In this document: positions 6,695-11,592 of the stretch, piece by piece
Layout of the letters: each line of letters opens with the position of its first letter
Position numbering within the stretch: position 1 is the first letter of the stretch
Source of the DNA: Candidatus Thorarchaeota archaeon
GTDB taxonomy: Archaea > Asgardarchaeota > Thorarchaeia > Thorarchaeales > Thorarchaeaceae
NCBI GenBank assembly: GCA_030642465.1
Contig: DAOWNS010000001.1
Coordinates: 1 to 27,414 of the forward strand
DNA length: 27,414 nt
Reading direction: 5' to 3'
Notes under the pieces: model-generated
Databases searched by the model: none
Told to the model about the DNA's origin: nothing
The model's input: only the letters and a program-made list of their open reading frames with translations
Position numbers and translations under genes: made by a program

Positions 6695-7555
6695 GTGGTG
6701 CAAGTGAAAGATATGCATCTCCCCACTCGTCGAGCCTATCATGTCATTTATGACTCATCACTGGTAGAAGCTCTTCAATATGCTTCAAGCAACAACTGGA
6801 CTGGAGTCGCACCAGATCTCGGTGTACCACAATTTTCCCCTGAGAGGTTTCCACCGAAGATGCGGGAGGAGCTCAGGGAGATGTCCAGTACTCTCTCCTT
6901 AGAGTGGGGGTTCCACGCTCCAGGCGATGATCTCAGTCTAACCGCAACTTATCCGCCCGTGCGGTTAGCGATCATTGAGTACATGAAACAGATAATTGAT
7001 TTTTCTCGCGATGTTAGCGATTCTGCAACGAATCTGGTTGTGCATGCAGGATTGCCACCTAGCTTCGGGAAAGCAGGTGGGGAGAAAGAGGCCTTCCTGA
7101 AGATCAATCATGAACTATATCTTCGAACACTACATGAGAATCTCTCAGAGCTGATTGAATATGGGGAACCAGACGTTCACATAGCTCTTGAGAACCATGC
7201 TTGGAATCATATGGTTCGTGAGGCAATTGGAGCTCTGCTTTCGGAAGGTCTCAGACTCTGTCTTGACATTCCAAAGCACTATGGACCCGACCTTGGGATC
7301 AAGTCTGAAGACTGGGCTATCTTTCAAGAAAATAGGAATGCCATTGAAGTAGTGCATGTCCACGATTGGTCCAAGAAGCACGGGTCCCATCAAGTCGTCG
7401 GAACCGGTTCAATAGACTTCAAGCCAAGTCTGCAACTGCTAACTGGATTAGGTCATCCTGCGCAATATGTGTTCGAAGTTCGACCCAGAGAGTCCGCTCA
7501 AGAAAGTCTTAGCAATTTCAGTCAAATCTTGAAGAGAACTGGCATCTCGCTCTGA
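6695..7555 (+). CDS. Sugar-phosphate isomerase/epimerase-like TIM barrel (AP_endonuc_2 family)
   Basis: GFHAP, VVHAG, ALENH, LDIPK, HVHD, VGTGSIDF, FEV metal-site pattern. Start may be ATG 6713. Confidence 0.8.
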   Translation: MVQVKDMHLPTRRAYHVIYDSSLVEALQYASSNNWTGVAPDLGVPQFSPERFPPKMREELREMSSTLSLEWGFHAPGDDLSLTATYPPVRLAIIEYMKQIIDFSRDVSDSATNLVVHAGLPPSFGKAGGEKEAFLKINHELYLRTLHENLSELIEYGEPDVHIALENHAWNHMVREAIGALLSEGLRLCLDIPKHYGPDLGIKSEDWAIFQENRNAIEVVHVHDWSKKHGSHQVVGTGSIDFKPSLQLLTGLGHPAQYVFEVRPRESAQESLSNFSQILKRTGISL

Positions 7556-7568
7556 CCTAGAGCAATCC

Positions 7569-8099
7569 CTAACCTACCAAATCCTCAATCTTCATCCACA
7601 TCATGACCTCGTTAGCATACTGGTTTCCGTGTCTTAGGCCACGCTCTAGGACTCCGAATTCCTTGAAGCCTATTCTCTTATACGATGCAGTGGCCTTTTC
7701 GTTGCTCCCTTCTGCACTAACCTGGACCATCTCAACTCCTATCTCAGCAAAATGCACTGCAATCACCTTCATCATGAGTCGTGCGATGCCAAGGCGTTGG
7801 AAGTCCTCTGCCACCACCACTTGCACCATCTCTATCCTATGCCTCTCACCTATCCATTTCTTTCTGACTCCTGTACACACTCCAACAACCTTGAATCCGC
7901 TAAGTGCACAGACACTGAGAACCTCGTCTGGGCCCGGGGCGATAAGACCATCTCTTCCTAGCTTCACTTCCTCTGCTGACATCCCACCGAAGAGATCATT
8001 GGCAATCGACTCCGCATGACGGTTTTCATATGGTTCGATGTGGATTCTGCTGCCGTCCTTTAACTCGTACTCCGCCACTATCTGTCGTTCTCCTGACAT
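7569..8099 (-). CDS. GNAT family N-acetyltransferase
   Basis: Motif A VVVAEDFQRLGIARLM and motif B NEKATASYKRIGF. Confidence 0.9.
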   Translation of the reverse strand: MSGERQIVAEYELKDGSRIHIEPYENRHAESIANDLFGGMSAEEVKLGRDGLIAPGPDEVLSVCALSGFKVVGVCTGVRKKWIGERHRIEMVQVVVAEDFQRLGIARLMMKVIAVHFAEIGVEMVQVSAEGSNEKATASYKRIGFKEFGVLERGLRHGNQYANEVMMWMKIEDLVG

Positions 8100-8154: not shown

Positions 8155-8931
8155 TTATTGTTTATGGGTCCTCTTTGCAGCTAATACGTCCCTTATCTCC
8201 CGAACAGCCACCAGAGTGCTCTCTCGGAAGAACGTACTCTTCTTTCGAAGCCTCCTCTCAGGCATTGTAGCTAAGGGTGAAACCTTGAACATCCGCAACT
8301 CCTTGAGAATGAAATCCCTGGCCTCCTCGTAGAATGCAATTCCCTCGATGCGTTGATCTCCTGAACCCCTGAAGAGCAGTTGGATGAATGTCGTGATCAA
8401 ATCAGGGTGCTGCGCTCCATCTGATTGTCCTGCCGTTTCAATACGTACAACACCTATGCCAAACAATCTATCCAATGGTCCAACTCTAGTCGAGATATTC
8501 GTAATTGAACGAAATGGGACGTGTTTGCGAACGATTGTGATGATGCCTTTTTTCTCAAATACTTCAGGCATAGTTTCTCCCGAGTATGCAACTAGCGAGT
8601 ACTCAATGCTTCTGACATAGAGATGGGTCCATATCATTGCGGGAACCAACCAGATCATGGTGAGTATCCAATACCATTGGCTGCCCGTGACCCACGTGTC
8701 CTCTAGGAACCATATTTCAAGGCCAAACTCCGTGCGTATTGCCTCACGCAGGAACCATGATATCCAAGGATAGCCAAAGAACATCAGATAGAACACAACC
8801 CATAATGCGAGAGCAATGAGAACGAACTTGAGCCATTTCTTGTAACGAAAGGCAGAGGCAGGCTTGAAAATCCTGCCACTCACCACGCTCTCGACAGGAG
8901 GTTTGATAACTCTTCCATCAGACGAGTCCAA
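8155..8931 (-). CDS. Membrane protein with bacterial PH (bPH_2/DUF304, YdbS-like) domain, paralog 3 of array
   Basis: 2 TM, then KHVPFRSITNIS...GPLDRLFGIGVVRIETAG. TTG start at 8931 or 8937 after GGGGAG; the ORF-track start at 8979 overlaps the upstream gene. Confidence 0.85.
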   Translation of the reverse strand: MDSSDGRVIKPPVESVVSGRIFKPASAFRYKKWLKFVLIALALWVVFYLMFFGYPWISWFLREAIRTEFGLEIWFLEDTWVTGSQWYWILTMIWLVPAMIWTHLYVRSIEYSLVAYSGETMPEVFEKKGIITIVRKHVPFRSITNISTRVGPLDRLFGIGVVRIETAGQSDGAQHPDLITTFIQLLFRGSGDQRIEGIAFYEEARDFILKELRMFKVSPLATMPERRLRKKSTFFRESTLVAVREIRDVLAAKRTHKQ

Positions 8932-8950
8932 CTTCAACTCCCCCTTGCTT

Positions 8951-9664
8951 TTACTTTCCCTGGTTCCTGAGTAGATCACGTATCTCCCTTAGGACCAATA
9001 GTATCTCATCCTCAAGAGTACCCTCCGTCCTCGGAGCTGTTTCATCCACTGGGAAAACAACCTCTGTGCCGGTCACATAGGGGGTTGTGAACTTACGCAA
9101 CTCCATCAAAACGAAATCCCTGAGTTCCTCGTAGAATGTGATTCCTTCAAGCTTTTCTTCTGGACCTGACATCGTCTGCCCGGAGTGTCCTGCAGTTTCT
9201 ATCTCAACACTGCCAATTCCAAACCACCTGTCAAAAAGCCCGGCCCTGCTGGAGATATTGGTGATAGTTCTGAAGGGGACGTGTTTCCTTGTTTTGTTGA
9301 GGATTCCTTTTTGGACATATATCTCAGGGCTTGCTTCTCCTGTTTCGCCTAGGACTGAGTATTCAATCGAGTTGATGTAAATATGATAGTAGATCATTCC
9401 GGGGATGAGGATGGCTAATGCTATTGCCCAATACCATAGATTGAGCGGAATCCACCATAGGTCCATGAATGCTTGGTGTCCGGGAGGACCAGAAACCATG
9501 CCCGCAAATCCTATTATCCCTACAATTAGCGTGAGCCAAATCACCACAACTATGATTATTCCCTGCAACCACATCTTGTTACGGAATCGTACACTTGGGC
9601 GAAACCTGCGTCCGCCCATCATAGACTCAATTGGCGGTTTGATTACCTTGCCTTCTGTTCCCAT
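8951..9664 (-). CDS. Membrane protein with bPH_2 domain, paralog 2 of array
   Basis: 2 TM, then KHVPFRTITNIS...GLFDRWFGIGSVEIETAG. GGAGGT SD before ATG 9664. Confidence 0.88.
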   Translation of the reverse strand: MGTEGKVIKPPIESMMGGRRFRPSVRFRNKMWLQGIIIVVVIWLTLIVGIIGFAGMVSGPPGHQAFMDLWWIPLNLWYWAIALAILIPGMIYYHIYINSIEYSVLGETGEASPEIYVQKGILNKTRKHVPFRTITNISSRAGLFDRWFGIGSVEIETAGHSGQTMSGPEEKLEGITFYEELRDFVLMELRKFTTPYVTGTEVVFPVDETAPRTEGTLEDEILLVLREIRDLLRNQGK

Positions 9665-9665
9665 T

Positions 9666-10421
9666 TTACTGACCTCCATCGCCTAGTTTGCTCTCAAGTT
9701 TTCTCATTACATCTCTTATCTCCCGGAGAGTTATCAGCATCTCATCATCAAGACTGTCATCCATCCTTGGTACGGGCTCCTCTCGCGGGAGTACTACCTC
9801 GGTAGTAGTGACATAGGGGTCTCTGAACTTGCGTAGCTCGTTGAGGATGAAGTCCCTGACCTCCTCATAGAACCTGACGCCCTCAATCTTCTCTTCAGGC
9901 CCCATCATACTACCTGAATATCCTGCAGTTTCGATTAGGACATTGCCAATCCCAAAAAAGCGATCGAATGGTCCTGATGTACTAGAGATGTTAGTGATGG
10001 TCCTGAAGGGAACGTGCTTCTTTGTGATGTTGACAATGCCTTTCTTCACATAGATTTCTGGCATGGTTTCTCCTGATTCAGCAATCACAGAGTATTCATA
10101 CGACCGTATGTACAGGGGTATCAGCACCAATCCCGGTAACAACCAGATTGCGTTGAATATCCAGACTCCAAGATTGACCGGGATCCACCAACTGTTAATT
10201 ACTGTCCAATATTCCGCTACTGTCCATCCATGGTCATGGACTTCAAACAGGTACAACATTCCCATCCAAGATAGAACGATTACAGCCCAGAGCAAGATGG
10301 CAACGATGATCATCTGGACTATGTTCTTATTTCGCAATGCCTTGGAAGGTCTGAAGATCTTCCCGCTAACTACACTTTCGATTGGTGGCTTGATCACTTT
10401 TCCCTCATCTTTCATTCTCAT
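9666..10421 (-). CDS. Membrane protein with bPH_2 domain, paralog 1 of array
   Basis: 2 TM, then KHVPFRTITNIS...GPFDRFFGIGNVLIETAG. ATG overlaps the upstream stop (TGATG). Confidence 0.88.
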   Translation of the reverse strand: MRMKDEGKVIKPPIESVVSGKIFRPSKALRNKNIVQMIIVAILLWAVIVLSWMGMLYLFEVHDHGWTVAEYWTVINSWWIPVNLGVWIFNAIWLLPGLVLIPLYIRSYEYSVIAESGETMPEIYVKKGIVNITKKHVPFRTITNISSTSGPFDRFFGIGNVLIETAGYSGSMMGPEEKIEGVRFYEEVRDFILNELRKFRDPYVTTTEVVLPREEPVPRMDDSLDDEMLITLREIRDVMRKLESKLGDGGQ

Positions 10422-10978
10422 CACATTTCCTTTCTCTTGTAACGAGGAACTTCTTTGGCCGCGAGCTTGTTGAAGATTGCAATGGATTGCTTGGTCATGT
10501 ATAGCTGTTCTTCGTCTGGTCTCAGCTTGATGTCATACTCTTCCATGATTGTATCCAAAGATTCTCTGCATTCTGCTTCCTTAGGACACTCTGGACAAAG
10601 CTTACCTGCGTAAGAGTCGTGAGCGTACCAGACTATGACTCCGAGATCCATGGTGAAGACAATGTACACCTGAGCATTGGCTTGATAGTCAAAACCAATG
10701 AGCAATCCTTTGTAGTCCAAGAGGCTCTCAATGTCCAAGCGATGACTCGTAGCATGTTCTGTCAATGCCTTCGCAATCTTCTTTCGTGCACGGTTGAGCA
10801 CTCTCGATACATATCCTGCATCCTTGAAGGCAACCTTTGGATCGGGCTCTCCGAGAAGATTCAATACATACTGCGGGACGCTGCTTCTTCTCTCATATTC
10901 GCTCGCAATGCCACGTGTAGACTTCGCGTGCTGAAATTCCCACCAGACAATTGCTTCATGAGGTGACAGCAGTTCCAT
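10421..10978 (-). CDS. Putative transcriptional regulator: N-terminal HTH-like region + C-terminal CxxCx5C metal-binding motif
   Basis: YVSRVLNRARKKI resembles a sigma70-region-4/LuxR-type recognition helix; CPECPKEAEC. First gene of the bPH_2 operon. Confidence 0.6.
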   Translation of the reverse strand: MELLSPHEAIVWWEFQHAKSTRGIASEYERRSSVPQYVLNLLGEPDPKVAFKDAGYVSRVLNRARKKIAKALTEHATSHRLDIESLLDYKGLLIGFDYQANAQVYIVFTMDLGVIVWYAHDSYAGKLCPECPKEAECRESLDTIMEEYDIKLRPDEEQLYMTKQSIAIFNKLAAKEVPRYKRKEM

Positions 10979-11009
10979 TTTCTTTCCTCAGGTTTAGTAG
11001 GTAGAGAAT

Positions 11010-11018
11010 ATATATAAA
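11010..11018 (-). promoter_or_regulatory. Archaeal TATA box of the regulator-bPH_2 operon
   Basis: Minus strand reads TTTATATAT, about 32 nt upstream of ATG 10978, preceded by purine-rich GGTAAAAG (BRE-like). Confidence 0.7.
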
Positions 11019-11043
11019 CTTTTACCATAATCTGGTAAAAGTT
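11017..11043. promoter_or_regulatory. Perfect inverted repeat, candidate operator (AACTTTTACCA-TAATC-TGGTAAAAGTT)
   Basis: 11-bp arms are exact reverse complements with a 5-bp spacer; overlaps the BRE and TATA edge. Confidence 0.7.
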
Positions 11044-11298
11044 CTATGTCTCTCCTAGCGTAACCACAGGTCGGGATTGGCAATTGCTGGTCCTGGCCGC
11101 CATTTCACCTCAAAAAGCATTGATTTGGGAATGGATCGCTTTTAGGGGAAGCTTTCAGATGCGTCGAACAAATGATAGGCTAATGTCGTTACGTTCAACA
11201 AAAAGCATATCTTATGGGAAAACCATTCCCAATGTGAGGTTAACGCCTTTCAGACTAGTGTGCGCAGGCACAAACGCCAAGCAAGGATGGTGAAATGA

Positions 11299-11592
11299 AT
11301 GATGTCGTCTAATCTTCCAAAAAGTGCGCTTATAGTGCTGAAGGGTTTGACTGTTAGTGGCCCAATGAGCCCCAAGGACATCAGCGAGAAGACAAACCTC
11401 GCACCTCGAACAGTTAGCTTTGCCCTGCGTAGGCTTCTGGGTTGGAGGCTTTGCCGCAAGGTTCCCAACCTCAGCGACATGCGACAGCCCCTATACTTAG
11501 CTAATCGAGAGATGGCCAGAGACCTCCTCCGAAAATACGGCACGGATGGTAGTATGAGAACAGCTCCTGCAGGATTCGCGTATCGCCATTAA
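11299..11592 (+). CDS. Small winged-HTH (MarR/ArsR-like) transcriptional regulator
   Basis: GPMSPKDISEKTNLAPRTVSFALRRL helix-turn-helix followed by wing VPNLSDMRQPLY. Confidence 0.82.
   Translation: MMSSNLPKSALIVLKGLTVSGPMSPKDISEKTNLAPRTVSFALRRLLGWRLCRKVPNLSDMRQPLYLANREMARDLLRKYGTDGSMRTAPAGFAYRH

Follow-up and report, generated by a model that had tools for sequence, protein, structure and literature searches.

One putative regulator and three membrane proteins behind a palindromic promoter

In a 27,414-nucleotide stretch of a Candidatus Thorarchaeota genome (assembly GCA_030642465.1, contig DAOWNS010000001.1; hereafter the window), four close-packed open reading frames (ORFs) lie on the minus strand at 8155-10978, downstream of a palindrome that adjoins a TATA box. 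The first gene, g1, encodes a small protein (G1) with a helix-turn-helix (HTH) domain and a conserved cysteine site, and the other three, g2 to g4, encode membrane proteins carrying a bacterial-type PH domain (bPH_2). The features are as follows.

11017..11043, no strand assigned: perfect 11-5-11 palindrome, putative G1 operator (AACTTTTACCA-N5-TGGTAAAAGTT, 100% complementary)
11009..11018, minus strand: TATA box TTTATATATA, read from the sequence and aligned with congener promoters
10421..10978, minus strand: g1, 185-aa predicted regulator, from ORF reading of the minus strand
9666..10421, minus strand: g2, first bPH_2 membrane protein, from its ORF and a positional ortholog in congeners
8951..9664, minus strand: g3, second bPH_2 membrane protein, from its ORF, a PF03703 match and an AlphaFold2 model
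8155..8931, minus strand: g4, third and most divergent bPH_2 membrane protein, from its ORF and a PF03703 match; its PH domain holds an insertion

The A of the g2 ATG (10421) is shared with the g1 stop codon (TGATG), with GTG 10424 and ATG 10415 as alternative starts. A single nucleotide separates the g2 TAA from the g3 ATG, which is preceded by GGAGGT. For g4 the candidate starts are two in-frame TTG codons 13 and 19 nt past the g3 stop, and a GGGGGAG element 6 nt ahead of the second favours that one. An earlier note, made from the letters of this DNA, had described the same four genes and their junctions (the TGATG overlap, a 1-nt gap and a 13-19-nt gap) together with a CxxCx5C motif in the first gene; re-reading of the sequence recovered every junction and located the motif at C128-x2-C131-x5-C137. 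The window sequence occurs in marine-sediment and cold-seep metagenomes. The assembly (2.15 Mb, 87% complete) contains one gene of the g1 family and three bPH_2 genes, all of them inside this operon.

Were homologs of the regulator rarely found next to bPH_2 genes, the earlier proposal of a dedicated module would, on its own terms, have failed. The opposite was observed. A g1 match was present in 67 of 201 genomes sampled from the Asgard phylum, and at all 30 of the best loci, which were inspected, at least one bPH_2 gene comes directly after the g1 ortholog (60-95% identical) on its strand. A wide scan of 185,579 species genomes yielded 114 confirmed loci, 80 of which were retrieved; 79 of these, from Thorarchaeota, Hermodarchaeota and Bathyarchaeia, carry one to six tandem bPH genes directly after g1, and the sole exception stops at a contig edge. 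The g1 stop and the next start codon overlap in most loci. Bathyarchaeia and Hermodarchaeota have a single bPH copy and Thorarchaeota have 1-6; the core module is the regulator plus one bPH gene. The closest loci, in Candidatus Thorarchaeota metagenome-assembled genomes (MAGs), encode G1 proteins 92-95% identical to that of the window. Within Thorarchaeota the module is single-copy and syntenic with stable flanks, and most genomes of the family carry it. In all, about 110 archaeal genomes, drawn from two phyla, show both the pairing and its DNA control site (described below). This is a genuine and old module, of which the literature searched gave no description.

In a g1 tree rooted on a deeper, divergent Asgard branch (deeper supports are weak), all 32 Bathyarchaeia sequences form one clade (support 0.93) nested inside Asgard, which tentatively suggests one transfer of g1 into Bathyarchaeia. 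The nesting suggests horizontal transfer between sediment archaea; g1 and bPH identities between Bathyarchaeia (loci L068-L110) and Thorarchaeota are 65-70%. One further locus (L084, DATLAV010000020.1) is labelled 'Patescibacteria group bacterium'; it holds an archaeal g1-bPH pair with Bathyarchaeia-type promoter boxes and is probably a mis-binned contig.

The assignment of g2-g4 to bPH_2, made in the earlier note, was upheld by profile scores and by structure. All three exceed the PF03703 gathering cut-off of 22 bits (g2 37.2, g3 45.4 and g4 34.4 bits), with the same outcome in the genome search; NCBIfam gave no match for the operon's bPH proteins. The g2 protein consists of a conserved N-terminal peptide, a transmembrane (TM) hairpin, a PH domain and a C-terminal helix. 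The AlphaFold2 model of g3 (predicted local distance difference test score, pLDDT, 79.8) has a helical hairpin at residues 25-98, a PH-like domain at 101-191 (strands 101-175, helix 178-191) and a C-terminal helix. It thus shows the PH-like beta-sandwich and C-terminal helix, following a TM hairpin, that characterise bPH_2 proteins, and Foldseek matched it to bacterial PH domains (3dcx and 3hsa at probability 1.00, 3b77 at about 0.7-0.8). The window copies are all single-PH proteins of 237-258 aa, and g1-linked copies in relatives have about 220-290 aa.

Pairwise identities among g2, g3 and g4 are 40-54% (g4 versus g2 or g3, 40-42%). The three had been called diversified paralogs. They are indeed related, but the trio represents a lineage-specific tandem expansion, copy number being one to six elsewhere. 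Each of the three has a positional ortholog in congeners. By patristic distance, g4 sits closest, outside its genus, to the final copies of the arrays in other Thorarchaeota genera, a hint that the expansion is in part old. The most conserved part across 145 g1-linked bPH proteins is the first ~30 residues, where the motif V-I-[KR]-P-P-x-E…S-G-[KR]-[VI]-F-[KR]-P is nearly invariant. In the g3 model this N-terminal peptide (~20 residues) has a pLDDT of about 50, with residues 7-17 below 50. A stretch that is conserved and modelled with such low confidence behaves as would be expected of a linear docking motif.

Two bPH_2 subclasses were distinguished in the Thorarchaeota family: the g1-linked one (240-290 aa) and an unlinked one (180-230 aa). 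Genomes of the family that lack g1 hold the unlinked subclass alone, bar one partial 138-aa match in genome G098. The unlinked subclass gives a full-length hidden Markov model match about once per Thorarchaeota genome (e.g. G046:C29:123650-123874); it was not found in the window's 87%-complete assembly.

A LuxR/sigma-r4-type protein and its putative operator

Single-sequence searches of Pfam, NCBIfam and PDB with g1 gave no match, and all 655 homologs in the database are labelled 'hypothetical'. A family alignment and profile (A1) was built from orthologs plus 25-35% identical paralogs. G1 comprises an N-terminal HTH of the LuxR/GerE/sigma70-r4/Tfx type (residues ~1-78) and an alpha/beta C-terminal domain without a match. 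The alignment displays the N-terminal pattern L-[ST]-x-x-[EQ]...IA...V-S-R/K...A-x-x-K-I, typical of LuxR and sigma-70 region 4. In the AlphaFold2 model of g1 (pLDDT 92.4) the recognition helix runs on into a long helix (54-78), followed by a four-stranded sheet, the cysteine loop and three helices. Residues 1-75 superpose under VIA-align on GerE, NarL, ECF (extracytoplasmic function) sigma region 4 and EnfR (8hno) with a root-mean-square deviation (rmsd) of 1.1-1.9 A; the Z values of 4-5 over 50-57 residues are modest because the HTH domain is small. The family profile matched 8hno (EnfR) at E=2e-5 and GerE at 1e-4, and G1 paralogs match GerE, Sigma70_r4 and HTH_23 weakly. The HTH is the best conserved part of the protein, and its recognition helix YVSRVLNRA is invariant among orthologs. 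On the strength of the structural superposition and the profile matches, G1 is a member of the LuxR/sigma-r4 HTH superfamily with an EnfR-like overall layout, and the HTH-like helix first noticed by eye is borne out.

Membership in the Tfx family was rejected. An hhalign comparison with an Asgard Tfx protein reached 95.7% probability and covered the HTH alone, and TFX_C (PF14601) had no Pfam match in g1 or in 34 family members and was absent from all genomes searched in the two main families that carry g1 (0/17 and 0/17). G1 therefore lies outside the Tfx family. Foldseek of the g1 model against PDB returned no match at E<0.6, and a search of AFDB yielded unnamed archaeal relatives plus a single 'transcriptional regulator' and nothing else. 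For the C-terminal domain, neither an exhaustive VIA search nor the named ESM Atlas clusters gave a match.

Within this C-terminal domain, W117, C128 and C131 are invariant across the family alignment and C137 is nearly so. All orthologs carry His120. It is common in paralogs too, most of which show H-x3-C-x2-C-x5-C. This is the spacing of the His(Cys)3 [4Fe-4S] site of NuoG, and weak PF10588 matches were obtained in three G1 paralogs; a structural Zn site is equally possible. The cysteine loop has the lowest pLDDT of the first 17 ten-residue blocks, with only the C-terminal tail scoring below it (74). In a deeper Asgard branch (about 35% identical; L116, L118 and L123) the motif reads H-C-x3-C-x3-C in place of C-x2-C-x5-C. 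The metal-type site suspected earlier in the HTH protein thus proved to be a Cys3(+His) ligand set conserved across the family, as in metal- or Fe-S-binding transcription factors. We predict that G1 holds a Cys3-His metal site, which may serve in metal or redox sensing, a hypothetical function.

The promoter palindrome reported earlier is perfect, and none of 100 shuffles matched it at up to 3 mismatches. It abuts the TATA box, itself some 30 nt ahead of the g1 ATG. This puts the proximal arm over the expected position of the transcription factor B recognition element (BRE), and the spacing predicts a g1 mRNA with a very short leader or none. A regulon search for the core TTTACC-N3-9-GGTAAA found one occurrence in the 2.15-Mb assembly, at the g1 promoter.

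Related boxes were found at g1 promoters in other lineages, directly on or beside the TATA box. The Bathyarchaeia promoter reads TTTATA-AGTAAA-NN-TTTACT-N7-GGTAAA; Hermodarchaeota have a 10-12-nt perfect palindrome, ATGTTTACTAAT...ATTAGTAAACAT, right past the TATA box; in Thorarchaeota AAATCTTTACC flanks the TATA box on both sides. The 35%-identical Asgard branch also has GGTAA/TTACC repeats past the TATA box. TTTACCA/TGGTAAA occurs in 37/52 non-redundant g1 upstream regions against 2% of background windows, and at least two TTTAC[CT]/[AG]GTAAA boxes in 46/52 against 4/251 other intergenic upstream regions; these statistics overstate the significance, and count to that degree against an operator reading, since related genomes are not independent, though the pattern spans two phyla. 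By sequence, the window palindrome is a variant of a putative cross-phylum TTTAC[C/T] operator, so that its earlier designation as an operator gains a half-site conserved around the TATA box in two phyla. G1 is the sole HTH protein conserved across all loci. Because the boxes are conserved, G1 is the only such protein in common and the core is unique in the genome, autoregulation by G1 would be the economical explanation. The placement of the boxes on the BRE, the TATA box or the transcription start suggests repression.

Putative regulator, membrane partners and the lost exporter

Taken together, these results point with fair probability to a conserved module in which an autoregulated repressor is coupled to membrane partners, possibly in an anti-sigma-like manner. 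In the proposed mechanism, G1, a small cytosolic HTH factor of an unnamed family that we call G1fam, would bind TTTAC[C/T] inverted repeats, most likely as a dimer. Bound at the BRE, TATA box or transcription start, it would repress its own operon, which would also yield one to six membrane proteins with a cytosolic bacterial-type PH domain (three here). G1 activity might be set by the Cys3-His metal site, by docking to the partner's disordered N-terminal peptide, or by both; such docking is likened to membrane anti-sigma factors holding ECF sigma factors. The bPH proteins would probably form membrane oligomers acting at the envelope or on small hydrophobic peptides, as analogy and the neighbours in relatives suggest.

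The idea of docking is motivated by a pattern that runs through the whole family. Genomes contain up to about eight g1 paralogs, none adjacent to bPH genes. At 20 paralog loci that were fetched, and at 30 of 30 more, the paralog is followed on the same strand by a gene for a membrane protein of varied size and architecture. Among the latter 30, the partner's start codon lies -38 to +7 nt from the G1fam stop in 29 (+94 nt in one), a TM segment is predicted in 29 partners, and the first TM helix falls within 70 residues in 28. All 28 of these early-TM partners have exactly one Cys in the pre-TM segment, and in 26 it sits in a C-x(1-6)-P motif (e.g. …RVC-x-IPP…), compared with 4/93 control membrane proteins. 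Natural fusions of G1fam with a membrane partner were looked for and none was found, the longer database matches being unrelated N- or C-terminal extensions. In the deeper Asgard branch mentioned above, a G1fam gene, two to three bPH genes and genes for an ABC (ATP-binding cassette) ATPase and permease follow on one strand. Because the paralogs too precede membrane proteins, the g1-bPH operon is one branch of a set of 'HTH factor plus membrane partner' gene pairs.

A more specific version, which we regard as possible but short of probable, is that the G1fam Cys3(His) domain docks on the partner's Cys-Pro or VIKPP peptide and that a membrane or redox signal frees the factor, making the pair a counterpart of ECF sigma and anti-sigma factors with g1-bPH as its most conserved branch. 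The lone Cys of the partner might supply the final ligand of a Zn or Fe-S site formed between the two proteins. To our knowledge, archaea are without sigma factors. If true, the docking model would describe a new archaeal signalling architecture in such organisms.

Several observations weigh against the proposed mechanism. The turn of the G1 HTH holds an insertion of ~25 residues in Thorarchaeota. The window operator lies upstream of the TATA box, whereas in most relatives it lies downstream, and activation is possible. G1 identity between phyla is 65-75%, high for a transcription factor; recent transfer, or else a structural role, could account for it. The Cys of the paralog partners is missing from the bPH partners, so that a single docking chemistry is not established. 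Runs containing the window sequence were all DNA, none RNA.

As to physiology, a role in envelope or small-peptide handling, or in the envelope stress or antimicrobial defence suggested in the earlier note, is something we infer only, by analogy; the exporter, C39-like peptidase and small TM ORFs of relatives give it a context, and the persistence of the core g1-bPH pair without exporter-type neighbours in Bathyarchaeia, Hermodarchaeota and the window genome speaks against it. These neighbours bear on a rival explanation, that of an archaeocin-like peptide export or immunity locus in which bPH proteins would work with an ABC exporter to transport small hydrophobic peptides or protect against them, and G1 would be no more than a local repressor. 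At 38 of about 40 Thorarchaeota loci, genes for a DrrA-type ABC ATPase and a 563-aa permease (no family match) adjoin g1 divergently across a common control region. About 16-19 Thorarchaeota loci (L035 1886-3391 among them) also encode, past the ABC permease, a protein of ~500 aa whose N-terminus is a signal or TM segment and which contains a Peptidase_C39_2 / BtrH_N-like domain. At L057, the first bPH gene is separated from the second by two tiny, very hydrophobic ORFs (6979-7095 and 7097-7318; 38 and 73 aa); ORFs of this type were seen in one Thorarchaeota genus. Precedents from Bacillota, namely DdE/DdF, LnqC/D and YdbS/YdbT, point the same way: DdE/DdF are needed for export of enterocin DD14 (PMC8657885), and ydbST protects against amylocyclicin (PMC8144471). 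Against this, Bathyarchaeia and Hermodarchaeota hold only g1 and bPH among unrelated neighbours, the C39-like match is weak (31.5 bits), and the window's operon contains neither a peptide gene nor a YdbT-like triple-PH protein.

The window genome itself provides a natural deletion, and two further features are needed to describe it.

10990..11061, no strand assigned: 72-bp segment replacing about 2.6 kb of the four closest relatives; blastn synteny breaks at 11062 and 10989
11299..11592, plus strand: MarR/ArsR-like winged-helix gene (97 aa), divergent from g1, with weak MarR and HTH_24 matches

In relatives the replaced 2.6 kb comprises the ABC permease, the ABC ATPase and a longer g1 leader (compare L031 627-3243); the window g1 leader is about 50 nt shorter. 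Two runs of one sample, probably the one from which the MAG was assembled, gave independent Logan contigs that cross both joints without mismatch. In a second sample, a related strain departs from the window sequence exactly at position 10989 and continues into a congener-type leader. No permease homolog was found elsewhere in the window's assembly, and a search of the window for ABC genes and small TM ORFs found neither. The window genome has lost the divergent ABC exporter, yet g1-g4 are intact. The export or immunity explanation is a possibility that we rate below an even chance; it addresses physiology and can hold alongside the regulatory model.

The g1 promoter has changed as well. Of the two palindrome arms, the distal one is the counterpart of the box that congeners have upstream (…TTTACCAGATT…), and the proximal one is new; the strain has therefore remade this putative operator into a compact, perfect palindrome that covers the BRE. 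Beyond g4, a 176-aa GNAT acetyltransferase gene (7569-8099, minus strand) starts 55 nt past it on the same strand; this position is kept only within the genus, and the gene may be co-transcribed with g4.

G1 might instead be a stoichiometric cytosolic subunit or assembly factor of a bPH complex, with another factor binding the promoter boxes. Its conservation over the whole length, including a basic C-terminal tail, would fit, as would the stop/start overlap in most loci, which suggests coupled translation; the binding sites of PHb proteins are described as acidic (PMC2817789) and could suit a basic tail. However, the HTH with its invariant recognition helix is the best conserved part and superposes closely (rmsd 1.1-1.9 A) on DNA-binding domains, no other DNA-binding gene is conserved across the loci, and one G1 per one to six bPH copies argues against a fixed stoichiometry. 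We consider this explanation unlikely.

That the palindrome serves the divergent MarR-like gene rather than G1 is very improbable. This gene lies 320 nt off on the other strand, is retained in the window and is conserved in 13 Thorarchaeota loci, where the ABC/C39 unit separates it from g1; but Bathyarchaeia and Hermodarchaeota loci, which lack it, conserve the TTTAC boxes equally well, and in relatives it lies more than 2.5 kb from the g1 promoter. Least credible of all is an anti-phage defence or toxin-antitoxin-like cassette with bPH effectors under an HTH controller, for although a small HTH gene followed by membrane-protein genes is the layout of many such cassettes, the module is a stable, syntenic, single-copy element outside any variable island, occurs in most genomes of the family, and g1-g4 had no match among PADLOC-DB defence models.

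How archaea, and Asgard archaea especially, relay membrane or envelope signals to transcription is little known; no sigma/anti-sigma systems are known from them, and two-component systems are few. G1fam is a family without a Pfam entry that combines a DNA-binding domain, an invariant cysteine site, a conserved putative operator and an obligate membrane-protein neighbour, and g1-bPH offers a compact, directly testable system. The widespread, functionally obscure bPH_2 membrane proteins thereby gain a first conserved dedicated candidate regulator, and natural variants (with or without the ABC exporter, with one to six copies, with or without tiny TM peptides) provide comparative handles on function. 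New here are the cross-phylum operator, the exporter deletion with its rebuilt palindrome, the definition of the Cys3-His domain and the membrane-partner signature; the deletion and the wider family of regulator-membrane partner pairs go beyond the points of the earlier note.

Comparison with known systems

The closest likeness to the regulator is offered by Tfx and EnfR. EnfR (TON_1525, PDB 8hno) is a dimeric archaeal repressor that binds a pseudo-palindrome over a promoter (PMC10570040). Like these proteins, G1 has a sigma70-r4-like HTH whose recognition helix continues into a long helix, and an alpha+beta head. The C-terminal domains, in contrast, show no detectable similarity, alignments ending at about residue 75-80; the invariant Trp and Cys3(His) set of G1fam was unmatched in Tfx/EnfR by the comparisons run, and an obligate membrane-protein neighbour distinguishes G1fam.

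With ECF sigma/anti-sigma pairs the module shares, by analogy, a sigma-r4-like protein encoded next to a membrane protein with a short cytosolic N-terminus, often with overlapping codons; autoregulation and a His/Cys metal motif, both features of such pairs, are predicted for the G1 module as well. The differences are that G1 has the r4-like domain only, without sigma region 2, that the metal motif resides in the DNA-binding protein rather than in the membrane partner, and that the partner's N-terminus is a ~20-residue low-confidence peptide and not a helical bundle.

In Bacillus, ydbST belongs to the sigmaW regulon (PMC8144471). YdbS and YdbT (COG3402/COG3428; PF03703) likewise have a TM hairpin followed by a cytosolic PH domain and are encoded by tandem PH genes, and their regulation is linked to stress and antimicrobials. 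The regulator there is an ECF sigma factor, whereas the archaeal operon has an adjacent dedicated HTH protein. YdbT is a six-TM, triple-PH protein with no equivalent at the archaeal loci, which thus do not encode a YdbS/YdbT pair, and the archaeal proteins have an extra N-terminal VIKPP peptide and a C-terminal helix. The connection to YdbS/YdbT drawn earlier holds for the shared bPH_2 domain and fails for want of a triple-PH protein.

DdE and DdF are bPH_2 proteins required to export the leaderless bacteriocin enterocin DD14 (PMC8657885). At the DdE/DdF, LnqC/D and aureocin A53 Orf7/8 loci (PMC8657885), bPH_2 genes stand beside an ABC exporter, as they do in Thorarchaeota relatives of the window. 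The tiny hydrophobic ORFs of such loci have a parallel in some archaeal relatives, where a bacteriocin structural gene was not identified. The window does not hold the set of peptide gene, bPH gene and ABC exporter that marks a leaderless-bacteriocin export locus; the exporter is absent from the window genome, Bathyarchaeia and Hermodarchaeota, and the domain of life and the regulator differ.

Finally, the structures of PHb1 and PHb2 form 5- and 12-mer rings, and these proteins have been proposed to act as membrane pores or transporters (PMC2817789). They belong to other Pfam families (PF08000 and relatives) and are soluble, without the TM hairpin of g3. Their fold (3dcx, 3hsa, 3b77) is nevertheless that of the g3 soluble domain, and their rings support the idea that the bPH proteins of the archaeal module could assemble into homo- or hetero-oligomers.

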